Shown here: in pieces, positions 11,128 to 35,100 of the stretch
How positions within the stretch are numbered: position 1 is the stretch's first letter
Layout: the number at the start of each line of letters is the position of its first letter
Assembly: GCA_964553245.1 (NCBI GenBank)
Contig: CAZKJM010000002.1
Coordinates: 5,878 to 69,877 of the forward strand
DNA from: an uncultured Gammaproteobacteria bacterium
Lineage (GTDB): Bacteria > Patescibacteriota > Microgenomatia > Levybacterales > UBA12049
DNA length: 64,000 nucleotides
Reading direction: 5' to 3'
Notes under the pieces: model-generated
Databases searched by the model: none
Seen by the model: the letters and a program-made list of their open reading frames with translations, nothing else
Told to the model about the DNA's origin: nothing
Program-made: the position numbers and the translations under genes

Positions 11128-11142
11128 CTCATGGTTTATAGG

Positions 11143-11170
11143 AAATAGCCAATAGCATATAGATAATAGG
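11143..11170. repeat. Intergenic heptad array (NAATAGC x4) between frr and the four-helix-bundle gene
   Basis: aaatagc caatagc atataga taatagg. Confidence 0.6.
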
Positions 11171-11177
11171 AAAAGAA

Positions 11178-11537
11178 ATGGCGTTTAGATTTGAAGAATT
11201 GGAAATTTGGAAAGCCTCGAATAATTACATTAAGGATATTTATCTCATAACAAAAAAATTTCCAAAAGAAGAAGCATTTGCATTAATAAGTCAATTAAAA
11301 AGGGCTGCTGGTTCAGTTTCTGCGAACATTGCCGAGGGATCCGGAAGTTCTTCAAAAAAAGATTTTTCCCATTACCTTGATATATCAATAAAATCAATTT
11401 TTGAGACAGTTTCCCATCTTTATTTGGCGAAAGAGCAGAAATATATCACAGAACGTGATAGAATATGTCTTTACGAACAGGCAGAAATTCTTGTAAAAAG
11501 AATAAATTCATTTAAAAAATGGTTAAACAAAAAATAA
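11178..11537 (+). CDS. Four-helix-bundle protein (23S rRNA intervening-sequence protein family)
   Basis: FEELEIWKASNNYIKDIYLITKKFPKEEAFALISQLKRAAGSVSANIAEGSG matches the E.W..A..L....Y.....FP..E...L.SQL.RAA.S...NIAEG signature of this family. Heptad-repeat arrays flank it on both sides. Confidence 0.7.
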   Translation: MAFRFEELEIWKASNNYIKDIYLITKKFPKEEAFALISQLKRAAGSVSANIAEGSGSSSKKDFSHYLDISIKSIFETVSHLYLAKEQKYITERDRICLYEQAEILVKRINSFKKWLNKK

Positions 11538-11584: not shown

Positions 11585-12689
11585 TACGATTCTTGTTTTT
11601 ATTGCTATTCTTTCGGTTTTGGTTTTAGTCCACGAATTAGGACATTTTTTGGTTGCAAAAAAACTGGGTATTAAAGTAGAAGAATTTGGCTTTGGGCTCC
11701 CTCCAAAGGCGCTAAGTTTTAAGAAAGGTGAAACGGTTTACTCAATTAACTGGCTTCCGATCGGCGGATTTGTAAAACTTTATGGAGAAGATGAAGCAGG
11801 AAGTGGAAAAATTCAAAATTCAAAATTCAAAATTCAAAATTCCGATAAGCATAGGGCGTTTTTTGCAAGACCAGCTTGGCAAAGAATATTGGTGGTAACA
11901 GCTGGCGTTGTAATGAATTTTTTACTGGCAGTAGTAATAATTTCATTTTTATTTTCCGCGGTTGGAGTTTCCATTCCCGGAGATAAAGTAACGATCTCTA
12001 ATGTTTTAAAAAATTCTCCGGCAGAAAAATCCGGATTAAAAATAGGGGATATAGTTGAATCCGTAAACGGAAAAGAAGTTAAAGAACCCGGACAACTGAT
12101 TTTAATAACAAAAGAGAATTTGGGAAAGGAAATCGCTTTAAAAATTAAAGATAAGGATGCAAAAGAAAAAGAGGTTAGAGTAACTCCCAGAAAAACCTAT
12201 CCGTCAAATGAGGGGCCAATGGGTGTTTCGCTCTCTTTAAGTTATAAGATTATAAAATATCCTTGGTATCAAGCTCCGTTTTTGGGCACGCTTGAAGCTT
12301 TGCAAACGTCATGGCTTATTGTTTCCGGTCTTTTTTCTATGCTTTATCAATTTATTTTTCATGGTATTACTCCAAAAGGAGTCGCCGGACCAGTTGGAAT
12401 TGCGCAATTAACAGGACAGTTTGTCCAAATCGGCCCATATGCGGTATTGTCTTTTGTTTCTATGCTTTCTTTAAACCTTGCAATTTTAAATATTTTACCT
12501 TTTCCTGCTCTTGATGGGGGAAGACTGGCATTTATTTTAGTAGAGGTTATTTTTGGAAAAAAAGTAAGCATTAAATATGAATCTTATGCTCATGCAGCGG
12601 GAATGGCATTGTTAATAGGACTTATTTTATTGGTAACAATTAATGATTTAATAAGGGTTTTTACCGGTCAGCCGATTCTTCCAAAGTAG
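11577..12689 (+). CDS. rseP: RIP metalloprotease RseP (site-2 protease, M50) with a PDZ domain
   Basis: HELGHFLVAKK is the HExxH motif in TM1. It has an internal PDZ domain (GDKVTISNVLKNSPAEKSGLKIGDIVESVNGKEV) and a C-terminal LDGG motif. The start was set to ATG 11577. Confidence 0.85.
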   Translation: MLVTILVFIAILSVLVLVHELGHFLVAKKLGIKVEEFGFGLPPKALSFKKGETVYSINWLPIGGFVKLYGEDEAGSGKIQNSKFKIQNSDKHRAFFARPAWQRILVVTAGVVMNFLLAVVIISFLFSAVGVSIPGDKVTISNVLKNSPAEKSGLKIGDIVESVNGKEVKEPGQLILITKENLGKEIALKIKDKDAKEKEVRVTPRKTYPSNEGPMGVSLSLSYKIIKYPWYQAPFLGTLEALQTSWLIVSGLFSMLYQFIFHGITPKGVAGPVGIAQLTGQFVQIGPYAVLSFVSMLSLNLAILNILPFPALDGGRLAFILVEVIFGKKVSIKYESYAHAAGMALLIGLILLVTINDLIRVFTGQPILPK

Positions 12690-13677
12690 CATTGAGATTT
12701 CTTTTATTTATTAATCTTTCCAATAATAAACAGGCCGATTTTAAGACTTTCTGCTCTTCGGGTTTAATGTCCGCTTTTGACTTTAAATGTTGGATTAATA
12801 ATTCAAGCGACAAAAAATCCTCCTGATTTTTAATAAGTAGCAAGGCGCTTCTTGTTTGACCTTTTTCTATAAGTATATTGATAATATCAGCTATTAATTT
12901 TTTGTCTCCAAGTTTTATCGCAGCCTGCCCAGCGCCCGCAGTTTTTTCTGAAGAAATTAAGCTTTTAATAATCTCTCTTGCCTTATCATTAAGTCCCAAC
13001 TTAATTGCTATTAATGCGGCGTTTCTGCAAGTATTTGCATTTATTAATACATTGACGCATTTTTCTTTTAATTCATCGTTTTCAAAATGATCCTGCGTAG
13101 TTTTGGCACTATCGTCTAGTTTTAAAATAATTTCTGCCGCATTTTCTGCATCTTTCATTAATTTTTTACCGTGGTAACGATTAGGATCTATTAATTTTTC
13201 TACTGCACCTATGGCTTCCTGTTTTGATCCAAGACTTATTGCAAGAAGACCTGCGTGATAGTAATCTTCTTCCTCGTAAAGTTTATCTTTTATTTTTAAC
13301 GCCAGTTCTTTATTGTTATCTTGCAATGCCCGAAGGGCAAAGTTATAAACTTTTTCAAGCCTTTTTTCTCTTTGGTGCTTGTATTCAACTACCGATGTTT
13401 TAATTGGATTATTTTCCTCAGGCCATAAATACGCCCTATGCACATCTTCTGCAATTCTATTAGCAATACGATCGATAGTTTTTTTATCCAGTCCTGTATT
13501 TGTTAAATTTTTTAAAGTAGAAGAGTATGCAGTATTTGCAACATCATCTGCTTTATCAACTTTTTCCGGACCCACCAAAAATTTTAAAATAGACGTTTCT
13601 TCAAAAGTTCTTCTGACAACAACCGGTTTCGGTTGGGGATTATCTTTTTGTGGTAAAAAAATTTCGTGTACATTCAT
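12661..13677 (-). CDS. Hypothetical protein with HEAT/armadillo-like repeats
   Basis: Repeated helical AALIAIKLGLNDKAREIIKSLI / AGQAAIKLGDKKLIADIINILI / LLAISLGSKQEAIGAVEKLI motifs. Confidence 0.4.
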   Translation of the reverse strand: MNVHEIFLPQKDNPQPKPVVVRRTFEETSILKFLVGPEKVDKADDVANTAYSSTLKNLTNTGLDKKTIDRIANRIAEDVHRAYLWPEENNPIKTSVVEYKHQREKRLEKVYNFALRALQDNNKELALKIKDKLYEEEDYYHAGLLAISLGSKQEAIGAVEKLIDPNRYHGKKLMKDAENAAEIILKLDDSAKTTQDHFENDELKEKCVNVLINANTCRNAALIAIKLGLNDKAREIIKSLISSEKTAGAGQAAIKLGDKKLIADIINILIEKGQTRSALLLIKNQEDFLSLELLIQHLKSKADIKPEEQKVLKSACLLLERLINKRNLNATLEESADR

Positions 13678-13770
13678 AAGTATATTTTAATAAATAGTAA
13701 CAGCTTTGTCAACTATAGGATAATATTTCTGTATTTATATTTTAAAAATCAAATGTTATACTAACTGAAT

Positions 13771-13920
13771 ATGAATATTACGTTTGAGAAATTCATCCGC
13801 CTTCGCTAAAAAGCTTCGGCGGGATTTCACGCTATGAATATTTCTTTTGAGGAGTTCATCCGCCTTCGCTAAAAAGCTTCGGCGGGATTTCACGCTATGA
13901 ATATTTCTTTTGAGGAGTTC
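13771..13920 (+). repeat. 63-bp direct tandem repeat in 2.4 copies. It duplicates the start codon plus the first 8 codons of the downstream gene, followed by a GC-rich hairpin
   Basis: Copies are at 13771..13833, 13834..13896 and a partial copy at 13897..13920. Each full copy reads ATGAATATT(A/T)C(G/T)TTTGAG(A/G)A(A/G)TTCATCCGCCTTCGCTAA followed by AAAGCTTCGGCGGGATTTCACGCT. The CCGCC...GGCGG stem is visible. Confidence 0.8.
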
Positions 13921-14226
13921 AAAAAAATAGAAATTAGAATTGGAAAAGTTACTCTTTGCGAAAAAGTTGAAGATGCGGATAAGCTTTTAAAGTTAGAGGT
14001 AGACTTCGGTTCTGAAATTGGAAAAAAACAAATTCTTTCGGCAATTGCTCAAAGCTATGAGCCCGAGGAATTGATCAACAGAAAATTTCCCTTTGTCGTA
14101 AACTTGGAGCCGCGAAAACTTAGAGGACTGGAGAGCCAAGGAATGATTTTGGCAATAGATGTACCTGAAAAGACAATTCTTTTGGAACCAACAGAAGACG
14201 TACCGGAAGGGATAGAAGTAGTTTAG
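13897..14226 (+). CDS. tRNA-binding domain protein (CsaA/Trbp111/EMAP-like OB-fold)
   Basis: IEIRIGKVTLCEKVEDADKLLKLEVDFGSE...QILSAIAQSY.PEEL..RKFPFVVNLEPRKLRGLESQGMILA matches the MetRS C-terminal/CsaA tRNA-binding fold pattern. It lies upstream of proS. Confidence 0.7.
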   Translation: MNISFEEFKKIEIRIGKVTLCEKVEDADKLLKLEVDFGSEIGKKQILSAIAQSYEPEELINRKFPFVVNLEPRKLRGLESQGMILAIDVPEKTILLEPTEDVPEGIEVV

Positions 14227-14241
14227 TGGTATACTAAAATT

Positions 14242-15456
14242 ATGAGATACTCAAAACTTTTTGGCAAAACAAAAAAAGAAGCTCCGAAGGACGAAGTTTC
14301 CACAAATGCAAAGTTTTTAATGCGCGGTGGTTTTATAGATAAATTAATGTCAGGTTCGTTTACTCTTTTGCCTCTTGGTTATAGAGTTAAAGAAAAGATC
14401 GAGCAGATTGTTCGAGAGGAGATAAATAAAACAGACGCATCTGAACTTTTGATGCCGCTTTTGCACCCAAAGACTATTTGGAATGAGACAGGAAGGTGGG
14501 ATAAGGCAAAAGAAGTAATGTACCAGTTTAAAAAGGGAGACAAGGAATACGCGCTTTCTTTTACGCACGAAGAAATAGTTTTGGATTTAGCAAGAAAATA
14601 TGTTTCCAGTTATAAGGATTTACCGATTAAAGTTTATCATTTTTCCACAAAATTCAGGGATGAGCCAAGGGCAAAATCGGGAATTTTAAGAGGAAGAGAA
14701 TTTATAATGAAAGACCTTTATAGCCTTCATGAGACTTCAAGTGATTTGGATAAGTATTATTTTGAGGTAGCAGAGGCATACAAAAAAGTATTTAAGAGAA
14801 TGAATTTGGATGTAAAAATTACAGAAGCCCCGGGCGGAGTATTTACAGATAATGTTACCCACGAATTTCAGGTAATTTGTGAAACAGGTGAGGACACGGT
14901 TTATTATTGTGACAGATGTGAATTTTCGCAAAATAAAGAAATTACAAAATTAAAAGAAGAAGACAGATGTCCTAATTGTGAACAAGGAAGGATAAAAATC
15001 GGAAGATCAATTGAGGTTGGAAATATTTTTAGATTTGGAACATCTTACAGCGAAAAAATGGGAGTATGTTATATAGGAAAGAATGGTCAAAAACAATATG
15101 TCCATTTTGGAAGCTATGGAATAGGTATAACAAGGTTAATCGGAGCTGTGGTTGAGCTTTTTAATGATAAGAAGGGGATAATCTGGCCAAAAGAAATCGC
15201 TCCATACAAAGTGCATTTAATCGGACTTAATAAAAAAGCAGATGAGGCTTATCAAAAATTATTAGACCAAGAAATTGAAGTTCTATATGACGATAGGGAT
15301 GTTTCTGCCGGCGAAAAATTTGCTGACGCCGATTTGATAGGAATTCCAGTGAGGTTAGTCATTAGTGAAAAAACAAACGGAAAAATTGAATATAAGGAAA
15401 GGGCAAAGGAAGTAACAGAATTATTGGATCTAGAAGAAGTTGTTAAAAGAGTTTAA
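14242..15456 (+). CDS. proS: Prolyl-tRNA synthetase, compact bacterial-type without the editing insertion
   Basis: The N-terminus aligns to bacterial ProRS (K.EAP.D.EV.S...LMRGGFI.KL.SG.FT.LPLGYRV..KIEQIVREE...A.E.LMP.L.P...W.ETGRW). It also has class II motifs and a C-terminal anticodon-binding region. Confidence 0.8.
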   Translation: MRYSKLFGKTKKEAPKDEVSTNAKFLMRGGFIDKLMSGSFTLLPLGYRVKEKIEQIVREEINKTDASELLMPLLHPKTIWNETGRWDKAKEVMYQFKKGDKEYALSFTHEEIVLDLARKYVSSYKDLPIKVYHFSTKFRDEPRAKSGILRGREFIMKDLYSLHETSSDLDKYYFEVAEAYKKVFKRMNLDVKITEAPGGVFTDNVTHEFQVICETGEDTVYYCDRCEFSQNKEITKLKEEDRCPNCEQGRIKIGRSIEVGNIFRFGTSYSEKMGVCYIGKNGQKQYVHFGSYGIGITRLIGAVVELFNDKKGIIWPKEIAPYKVHLIGLNKKADEAYQKLLDQEIEVLYDDRDVSAGEKFADADLIGIPVRLVISEKTNGKIEYKERAKEVTELLDLEEVVKRV

Positions 15457-33226: not shown

Positions 33227-33309
33227 TGTTGGTTTGGATTTTAGAATAGATAAATTTTGTTGTCAATTGGAATTGATTGAATTTAAAACTTATAGTATAA
33301 TCTTAATTT

Positions 33310-34008: not shown

Positions 34009-35100
34009 ATGTCACTTTCAATCGGTATAGTAGGCTTACCCAACGTAGGGAAGTCAACATTATTTAATGCGATTTTAAAAAAACAAATGGCATATGTTGC
34101 AAATTATCCATTTGCAACAATAGAGCCAAATGTTGGTGTTGTTCCTGTTCCAGATGAAAGATTGAAAAAACTTGCAGAAATAACTAAAGACGAACATAAA
34201 ATGACGAGTCTTCCGCCAATAAAACCGGCAACTGTAAGCTTTGTGGATATCGCAGGTCTTGTAAAAGGGGCATCTGTTGGAGAGGGTTTAGGTAATAAAT
34301 TCTTATCACACATAAGAGAAGTTGACGCTATTTGTCATGTAGTAAGATATTTTAAGGATCCGGATGTAGCCCATGTTTCCGGACAAGTAAATCCCGATTC
34401 TGATTCCAAGATTATTAATATGGAATTAATCTTGGCAGATCTTCAAACAGTAACTAATGCAAGGGATAGAGGATCCTCCTTCGCTAAAGCTTCTGCGGAC
34501 AAGCAAAAGGTTCCGGTTAAAGGTTTTAAAGAAGCAATAACAAAATTAGAAAAGGCATTAAATCTTGGAATTTTAGCAAAAGATGCTGATTTAACAGAAG
34601 AGGAAAATGAATCGATTAAAGACTTGCATTTATTAACTTTAAAGCCAATGTTTTACGCAGCAAATGTAGACGAGGAGGATCTTAAAAAACAATACCCAAA
34701 AGATACGATTGCAGTGTCGGCAAAAATTGAATCAGAATTAGTCATTTTATCTGAAGAAGAACAAAAAGATTATCTTTCGGATCTAGGAATTAATGAATCA
34801 GGACTTGAAAGAATTATAAAAAAGGGTTACGAAATTTTGGATTTAATTTCTTTTTTGACAGCCGGAGAAAAAGAGGTTAGAGCATGGACCATTAAAAAAG
34901 GAACAACTGCTGTAAATGCTGCAGGAGTGATTCATACAGACTTTATAAAAGGTTTTATAAAAGCAGAAGTGATTTCTTTTTTGGATTTTGTTTCCAATGG
35001 AGGCTGGAAGCGCTGCCGTGAAAATGGTAAAACAAGACTTGAAGGTAAAGACTACTTAGTTAAAGATGGAGATATTATAGAGTTTAAAATTAATTCCTAA
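34009..35100 (+). CDS. ychF: Ribosome-binding ATPase YchF (Obg-family GTPase)
   Basis: [18 protein letters not shown] (G1), [30 protein letters not shown]-terminal TGS domain. Confidence 0.9.

Follow-up and report, generated by a model that had tools for sequence, protein, structure and literature searches.

Translation of a bacterial gene can depend on a short upstream open reading frame (uORF) by coupled termination and reinitiation. Leaders of this type include cases of 70S-scanning initiation and leaderless uORFs in mycobacteria, and a scanning/reinitiation model was reportedly put forward by Adhin and van Duin. Interspersed palindromic mini-elements form another known group, comprising the repetitive extragenic palindromic (REP) sequences and bacterial interspersed mosaic elements (BIME), the Rickettsia palindromic elements (RPEs), which insert into coding sequence, and the mitochondrial GC clusters. 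The byp elements of yeast mitochondria are translational bypass elements. According to a preprint, the bypass element of T4 gene 60 is a mobile insert (bioRxiv 10.1101/2022.08.31.505936). Here, we describe the leader of a gene for a Trbp111-like tRNA-binding (tRNA_bind) protein, located upstream of proS in a stretch of 64,000 nt (hereafter the window) of contig CAZKJM010000002.1, positions 5,878 to 69,877, from a member of the Levybacterales (Patescibacteriota; assembly GCA_964553245.1). The leader contains a short and probably translated copy of the first eight codons of the gene, referred to as the stub, which is followed by a GC-rich palindrome and a complete gene start. Based on comparisons at the sequence level, we propose with moderate confidence that the locus consists of two layers: an old leader of stub, palindrome and full start, which would work by uORF-dependent reinitiation, and a young additional unit of 63 nt. 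According to this proposal the leader is not an attenuator or charging sensor.

The repetitive region was delimited by Tandem Repeats Finder at 13770-13921 (period 63, 2.4 copies, 95% matches, score 276). Positions 13795-13857 and 13858-13920 form a perfect tandem duplication of 63 nt. A preliminary description of the DNA had stated that the 24-nt opening of the gene at 13897 is repeated twice upstream. This was confirmed, with an exact copy at 13834 and a copy with 4 mismatches at 13771. The latter copy (13771-13794) is the older, diverged one and differs from the main copy in two amino acids. Within the 64 kb, the GC-rich segment ATCCGCCTTCGCTAAAAAGCTTCGGCGGGATTTCACGC (38 nt) has exact copies at 13795 and 13858 only, against 0 expected in shuffles. 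The two mini-ORFs of 12 codons each are also present as described, with MNITFEKFIRLR and its stop codon at 13771-13809 and MNISFEEFIRLR and its stop codon at 13834-13872. Their relation to the hairpins had to be corrected. Rather than following the mini-ORF, each hairpin overlaps its last five codons, because the TAA stop codon sits in the hairpin loop. The hairpin ends 8 nt upstream of each following ATG. An ORF of 45 amino acids on the minus strand (13756-13893) was dismissed as a by-product of the repeat. The features of the leader are as follows.

13734..13762, plus strand: promoter-like site from a consensus scan, with TTTATA, a 17-nt spacer and a TG-extended -10 hexamer TATACT (13757-13762)
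13771..13809, plus strand: uORF1, consisting of stub copy 1 (13771-13794, MNITFEKF), a 4-codon tail (IRLR) and a TAA in the hairpin loop
13795..13825, plus strand: GC-rich palindromic element, copy 1, with the arms ATCCGCC (13795-13801) and GGCGGGAT (13818-13825) and a 16-nt loop
13826..13833, plus strand: junction TTCACGCT from the hairpin to the next ATG, within the motif GGCRGATTTCA
13834..13872, plus strand: uORF2, encoding MNISFEEFIRLR and a stop; its first 24 nt equal the real gene start exactly, via the recent duplication; missing in the independent contig L001
13858..13920, plus strand: young 63-nt unit, with hairpin copy 2 (13858-13888), junction (13889-13896) and the first 24 nt of the real gene
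13897..14226, plus strand: main gene, encoding a Trbp111/MetRS-C-terminal-like tRNA_bind protein of 109 amino acids (PF01588, E 6e-26; best PDB match 1pyb)

The initiation signals of the window were analyzed with respect to the position of the stub. Shine-Dalgarno (SD)-like tetramers precede only ~5 of the 68 genes considered, namely the long ORFs of the window. The first base of -10-like hexamers peaks 12-14 nt upstream of start codons (for example at 14230-14241, 33296-33309 and 34996-35008), so that many genes of the window are probably leaderless or nearly so. At the leader, the -10 hexamer TATACT begins 14 nt before the stub ATG at 13771, and the transcript would consequently be leaderless or carry a leader of 1-2 nt. 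The promoter block upstream of the stub is ~80% conserved in the related locus L086. Upstream of the real ATG at 13897, neither an SD-like motif nor a -10 box was found. Since the genome lacks SD sites and has many leaderless starts, ribosome entry is most likely to occur at the stub ATG. The uORF start occupies the likely entry site both in the window, where TG-TATACT lies at -14, and in the lineage L095, where the stub sits at the position of the gene start of L099, an allele without the leader. By its position, and by the retained start codon and frame described below, the stub is a maintained start site: it stands at the canonical entry position, with the -10 box at -14 in the window and in L086.

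The proposed mechanism takes up these observations. The old layer consists of a stub of the first 8 codons, at the position of a normal gene start in this genome, a GC-rich palindrome of 30-40 nt, which probably arrived as a mobile mini-element, and a second, complete gene start. Transcription would start at about 13769-13771. Ribosomes would enter at the 5'-terminal stub ATG and read 12 codons, passing the 5' arm of the hairpin, before they are released at the TAA within the loop (in or just past the hairpin). Reinitiation would follow at the next ATG, 24 nt further on; in some relatives this next ATG overlaps the uORF stop. In the window strain, this cycle of termination and reinitiation would take place twice before the real ORF is reached. 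With a hairpin near the ATG and a genome without SD sites, independent entry at the downstream ATG would be disfavoured, and the output of the main ORF would be coupled to, and throttled by, translation of the stub. In the young layer, the 63-nt unit would have been added through slippage during replication or through unequal exchange, with the 24-nt direct repeats as partners, and the extra mini-ORF and hairpin probably lower expression further. The arrangement resembles described coupled-uORF leaders in that a short ORF occupies the only good entry site, its stop lies a few nt to ~25 nt from the main start, and a structure that a translating ribosome would open is located before the main start. 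It differs from them in that the uORF copies the first eight codons of the main gene, the structure is a widespread GC palindrome and the host is SD-less.

Further support for an old layer is provided by other genomes. Four further Patescibacteria lineages carry stub, hairpin and full start ahead of their orthologue of the Trbp111-like gene, the encoded protein being 86-88% (L086/L087), ~56-63% (L093/L007), ~58% (L094) and ~65% (L095) identical to that of the window. The leaders are organized as follows.

L086/L087: stub GTGAATATTACATTCGAAGAATTC; shortened hairpin AATCCAGCCATAGGCGGAT, then TTCAAGCGGTTT; main start ATGATTAGC...; uORF stop ends 8 nt into the main ORF
L007/L093: stub ATGATTTCATTTGAGGAATTT; 38-nt element; main start ATGAATATATCA...; TGA overlaps the main start as ATGA
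L094: stub ATGAACAATATTACTCTTGAGGAGTTT; 39-nt element; main start ATGAATATTACA...; TAA in the loop, 21 nt to the main ATG
L095: stub ATGGATCAAATAACCTTTGATGATTTT; 83-nt element with the same ends; main start ATGATTAAG...; TAG 17 nt upstream of the main ATG

Across all five lineages, the uORF stop is located between 24 nt before the main ATG (window) and 8 nt past its first base (L086). The hairpin and junction are identical at ~33 of 36 positions (about 92%) between the window and L007 in a hand alignment, while the identity of the two genes at four-fold sites is 0.44, with a saturation baseline of ~0.32. The motif GGCRGATTTCA is invariant in 5/5 lineages and had no other occurrence in ~650 kb of fetched loci. 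By this comparison, the element is conserved above the neutral level. The arms ATCC(N)GCC and GGCRGAT are kept, and the loop between them measures 3 nt in L086, ~16 nt in the window, L007 and L094, and ~65 nt in L095. Retention of the arms despite a variable loop favours a stem-loop over a protein operator of fixed spacing; the latter was ruled out by an arm spacing of 3 to ~65 nt. The uORF tails differ between the lineages in sequence and in reading frame across the element, so that conservation does not reside in the tail peptide. The idea that mini-ORF and hairpin form a real leader gains support from the retention of stub and hairpin in the four other lineages; the uORF tail is not conserved. 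In L095:184-543 (P0052), the gene call had been extended upstream into the palindromic element, which places the N-terminus MAHRTIIGRFHII ahead of the real Met. Such leaders hence create spurious N-terminal extensions in databases.

The stub itself was compared between the lineages and with the main start. In 5/5 lineages the stub retains ATG or GTG as its start codon as well as an open frame, and indels occur only in multiples of 3 nt. The differences between stub and main copy are all synonymous in L094 (4/4) and in L007 (3/3), as are 3 of the 4 changes outside the start codon between the stubs of the window and L086. Between L095 and L099, the stub has 93% nucleotide identity and the gene body 77%, with a four-fold identity of 0.44. 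We read this pattern as constraint on an actively used translation start, possibly aided by gene conversion or recombination with alleles that lack the leader. We do not read the stub as the protein's own N-terminus. The stub of the window encodes FEKF, and a Lys at that position is present in 0 of 118 homologues.

The age of the second unit was assessed with L001, an independent ENA contig that encodes an identical tRNA_bind protein. On one side the two sequences agree at all of 3025 nt, and on the other they differ by 4 single-nucleotide polymorphisms (SNPs) in 3394 nt. L001 has exactly one 63-nt unit fewer and contains the diverged stub, a single hairpin and the gene (1.4 versus 2.4 copies). 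The second 63-nt unit is recent. The middle copy, which is of the main type, would fit slippage of the nascent strand from the real gene start back to the stub. A slipped duplication of variable copy number, as suggested in the preliminary description, accordingly applies to the second unit; the first unit is older and occurs in four other lineages.

In folding predictions, each unit forms a modest hairpin, with ~ -13 kcal/mol for a single unit (z = -1.9). The whole region of 196 nt is no better than shuffles (z = -0.37), and both the minimum free energy and the centroid structure show just two identical hairpins. The 26-nt core of the hairpin was found exactly in four otherwise unrelated metagenome contigs (L002-L005; 39-60% GC, three of them at 56-60%). 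In each of the four contigs, identity covers the full 28-mer TCCGCCTTCGCTAAAAAGCTTCGGCGGA (TCCGCC...GGCGGA), located at L002:909-934, L003:5931-5956, L004:301-326 and L005:123-148 and often continuing ...GGACAAGC. The L002 palindrome is an insertion into a tandem repeat of ~110 nt, of which it splits a single copy; that of L005 lies inside a related palindrome, in a stretch resembling an ORF; and those of L003 and L004 are located between genes. At the tRNA_bind loci, the hairpin has an imperfect GAWTTYA motif on its flanks; no flanking repeat is present in L002-L005. At other loci of the 64-kb window the palindromic element was not found. A search for CCGCC..GGCGG and GGCRGATTTCA in the ~650 kb of fetched Patescibacteria loci returned none beyond the tRNA_bind leaders and L002-L005. 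In viral contigs, the 26-mer core had 0 matches, and the 16-mer GCTTCGGCGGATTTCA had 34, none of them with hairpin context and at chance level for the size of the collection. The exact core in unrelated contigs suggests that the hairpin probably began as a mobile palindromic element, and it seems to belong to a palindromic family that is mobile, or in any case widespread. Like REP, BIME, RPEs and GC clusters, it is a short GC palindrome in an AT-rich genome with identical cores in different contexts, and the likeness includes in-frame low-complexity loop inserts in homologues of the same tRNA_bind protein. Unlike those elements, it occupies one locus in 64 kb, has no clear target-site duplication, is combined with a duplicated gene start and is retained across deep divergence.

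The inserts mentioned are found in the tRNA_bind homologues P0041, P0055, P0097, P0111, P0114 and P0118, in frame and in the same loop past the DFG motif (e.g. GPSAGSGSSRIQ and GSAEQNSSARQNTSAEQNLPG). Their appearance is that of GC-rich palindromes that inserted into coding sequence and are translated. An independent second case of a stub followed by a hairpin was observed at mreB in L035:4643-4760 (Sungiibacteriota contig JACPMF010000015.1). There, the stub reads ATGCTCAATAAACTTTTCGGATTATTTTCAAAAGAC (MLNKLFGLFSKD); next come a strong in-frame GC hairpin, CCCGTAGTAGAACCCCGGGTTCACTACGGGG, then five more mreB codons (GIGIDL) and finally the complete mreB start. The fold from stub to start has -28.7 kcal/mol (z -3.7). 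The stub differs from the main copy by ~9 synonymous and 1 non-synonymous changes, and the uORF stop overlaps the main start. A small divergent gene is inserted just upstream, as in the window.

In several close relatives the allele of the tRNA_bind gene is empty, without the leader. The tRNA_bind gene comes directly after rseP in L088, L089/L090 and L097; an arginase gene lies upstream in L091/L092 and L098, and in L096 and L099 the upstream gene is zwf. In a neighbour-joining protein tree, three filled clades (the window with L086; L007 with L094, with the empty L096 nested inside; and L095, sister to the empty L099) are interleaved with at least six empty alleles. L095 and L099 represent a pair of a filled and an empty allele with 91% identical proteins. 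The L095 stub is identical at 25/27 positions to the native gene start of L099 and lies at the same place, 1 nt past the zwf stop codon. The extra block of L095 relative to L099 consists of the 83-nt element and a different start, ATGATTAAGTTTGAGGAATTC. The N-termini encoded by L096 and L099 are of the stub type. The leader may be ancestral, with repeated losses by slippage between the repeats that left such N-termini behind, or it may have been gained or transferred several times. A long target-site duplication was considered as the source of the 24-nt repeat and appears unlikely: in L095, stub and main start are very different and the stub matches the native start of L099, and no long flanking repeats surround the element in L002-L005.

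A number of observations weigh against uORF-dependent reinitiation and the two-layered history. The lack of SD sites is genome-wide, so that the missing SD motif before the main ATG is no proof of uORF dependence. The hairpins are weak across the lineages (-8 to -13 kcal/mol, z -0.7 to -2.2), and compensatory pairs in the stem were not found; a MAFFT alignment of four hairpins was not structure-consistent and contained only a G-U change and bulge shifts. The core is identical in unrelated organisms, and its conservation may be a property of the element family rather than of the tRNA_bind gene. Given the patchy phylogeny, conservation could reflect recurrent gain or recombination instead of selection in place. 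The tendency of the stub to change synonymously is not fully accounted for. Finally, the one-unit state of L001 could be an assembly collapse.

Among the alternatives, a leader-peptide attenuator, or another sensor of tRNA charging or translation that controls a tRNA_bind-proS operon, had been raised in the preliminary description and was not supported; we consider it very improbable. The layout does recall the trp, his and pheST attenuators and T-box leaders, as a short ORF overlapping a hairpin stands upstream of a tRNA-related gene and an aminoacyl-tRNA synthetase gene. In addition, more distant Patescibacteria carry T-box-like leaders (RF00230) before the same gene pair, upstream of a tRNA_bind gene that itself precedes proS (L013:105-257, 56.7 bits; L031:2465-2620, 26.7 bits; both significant, though under the gathering score of 93). 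Relative to the copy in L013, that in L031 contains an additional GC-rich palindromic insertion (...GCTATGCGGGACAAGC). Unlike in these systems, no U-tract is present past the stem in the window (GGGAUUUCACGCU; stem then AUUUCACGCU), and a terminator scan called nothing at 13795-13896. The predicted folds (z = -0.37) contain no mutually exclusive antiterminator and terminator pairing. Regulatory codons are missing as well, with 0 Pro codons in the window peptides MNITFEKFIRLR and MNISFEEFIRLR and 0-2 across the lineages, and the peptide tails and frames vary among L086, L007, L094 and L095. An Rfam scan of 13600-14300 at E <= 10 gave noise only and no T-box, and a scan of seven related loci at the gathering threshold gave nothing. 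Moreover, the leader is not tied to proS, because proS is not adjacent in L093/L007 and L094, where the leader lies in a zwf-tRNA_bind-gnd context, and because proS in the window has its own -10 box. Programmed translational bypass is hardly credible either. In this reading, ribosomes that initiated at the stub would leave the mRNA (take-off) at the last Phe codon of the stub, skip the hairpin and resume at a Phe codon further downstream, and the stub would supply the N-terminus of the protein. Matched Phe codons are indeed available (TTC/TTT at the stub end, TTT/TTC past the hairpin in the main frame, TTC at main codon 8), the GC hairpin directly follows the candidate take-off codon in an AT-rich gene, the differences between stub and main copy are mostly synonymous in L094, L007 and L035, and some empty alleles carry stub-type N-termini. 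As in gene 60 and byp, a GC hairpin insert of probably mobile origin is placed in an AT-rich coding start between matched flanking codons. In contrast to those elements, the downstream copy has its own start, as the main ORF retains an ATG and its full N-terminal codons in 5/5 lineages. The codon after the candidate take-off site is ATC or AAT/AAC and never a stop, a nascent peptide of just 8-9 residues allows no long nascent-peptide signal, and the gap reaches up to 104 nt in L095. The FEKF pattern of the window stub, absent from the 118 functional homologues, would place a non-permitted residue in the protein.

The main rival to uORF-dependent reinitiation is a harmless scar, which we regard as a tentative alternative. 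A palindrome insertion or rearrangement at the 5' end would have duplicated the gene start by chance, stub and hairpin would be harmless, and the extra unit would be slippage noise. The hairpin family occurs in unrelated contexts, with the L002 copy inserted inside another repeat, and filled and empty alleles are interleaved, precise loss by slippage being easy and L096 and L099 carrying stub-type N-termini. The Lys of the FEKF stub, found in 0/118 homologues, and the analogous arrangement at mreB in L035, where a full start follows stub and hairpin, also agree with a scar. It accounts less well for a hairpin and junction that are ~92% identical between lineages with near-saturated synonymous sites, for stem arms that survive large loop indels, for a stub start codon and frame kept in 5/5 lineages, and for an L095 stub that, when compared with L099, has diverged less than the gene body. 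It is unlikely, on the comparisons made here, that a family of GC-rich palindromic mini-elements, whose 26-28-nt core is identical in Patescibacteria and in GC-rich bacteria unrelated to them, invades 5' coding ends and thereby duplicates or replaces gene starts, the gene persisting behind a new leader of uORF and hairpin, with this leader then selected as a translational throttle in SD-less genomes prone to leaderless mRNAs and slippage tuning the dose; the mreB locus of L035 would be a second example. The version of this explanation that involves ribosome hopping is disfavoured. Two further possibilities concern the number of units. It is quite unlikely that the second unit of the window was mis-assembled, or that the true number is at least 2 everywhere and L001 collapsed. 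The perfect tandem block of 126 nt is prone to mis-resolution with short reads, and the assemblies differ by exactly one unit, but assemblers mostly collapse tandems and rarely invent them, and the 4 SNPs between the window and L001 indicate separate populations. There is also little to be said for a copy-number rheostat in the manner of contingency loci, in which frequent slippage of 63-nt units would step the expression of the tRNA-binding protein and variability itself would be selected. Near-identical strains are one unit apart, as in such loci, and the perfect 63-nt tandem units end in the 24-nt gene-start repeat. Unlike in contingency loci, the unit is 63 nt long and located in a leader, a single polymorphism was seen, and all other lineages are fixed at one unit; the copy difference is perhaps an assembly collapse, and loss of the last unit would be irreversible.

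The genes around the leader were assigned as follows; the presence of a tRNA-binding gene and proS downstream of the repeats was borne out, the products being the PF01588 Trbp111-like protein and a class II prolyl-tRNA synthetase (ProRS).

14242..15456, plus strand: proS, class II prolyl-tRNA synthetase, with its own TG-TATACT box 12 nt upstream of the ATG
12661..13677, minus strand: divergent gene of 338 amino acids without a Pfam match, between rseP and the leader, in the window/L086 clade only

Given its own TG-TATACT box, proS probably has a leaderless promoter of its own. By the relatives of its ProRS, the window falls within Patescibacteria, close to Curtissbacteria and Levybacteria-type Microgenomates, with best genome matches of 62-66% identity. 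The convergent genes rseP (plus strand, end 12689) and the 338-amino-acid gene (minus strand, end 12661) share a 3' overlap of 29 nt. In sister lineages without the latter gene, rseP directly abuts the tRNA_bind gene. Within the rseP coding sequence (Peptidase_M50), a perfect (AAAATTC)x5 is located at 11808-11842 of the window and encodes KIQNSKFKIQN in a variable linker; a change by one unit would shift the rseP frame, as the unit measures 7 nt. A gene of the 23S rRNA intervening-sequence protein family (PF05635) is located at 11178-11537, and the 14-nt tandem repeat ATAGGAAATAGACA (x2.6) lies ahead of it at 11138-11173.

In searches of the literature for palindromic elements, leaderless translation or bypassing in Patescibacteria (candidate phyla radiation), we found nothing that describes the layout of stub, hairpin and start. 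If the leader were a mere scar, it would be a warning for gene callers and annotators with regard to duplicated starts and N-terminal extensions such as that of P0052. The copy difference between strains represents a natural allelic series of 0, 1 and 2 units. If the proposed explanation is true, the locus would show how selfish palindromes can be tolerated at, or co-opted into, gene starts. Little is known about the initiation and regulation of translation in Patescibacteria, and a leader of this kind, maintained across several lineages, would offer a testable example of initiation that depends on a uORF.

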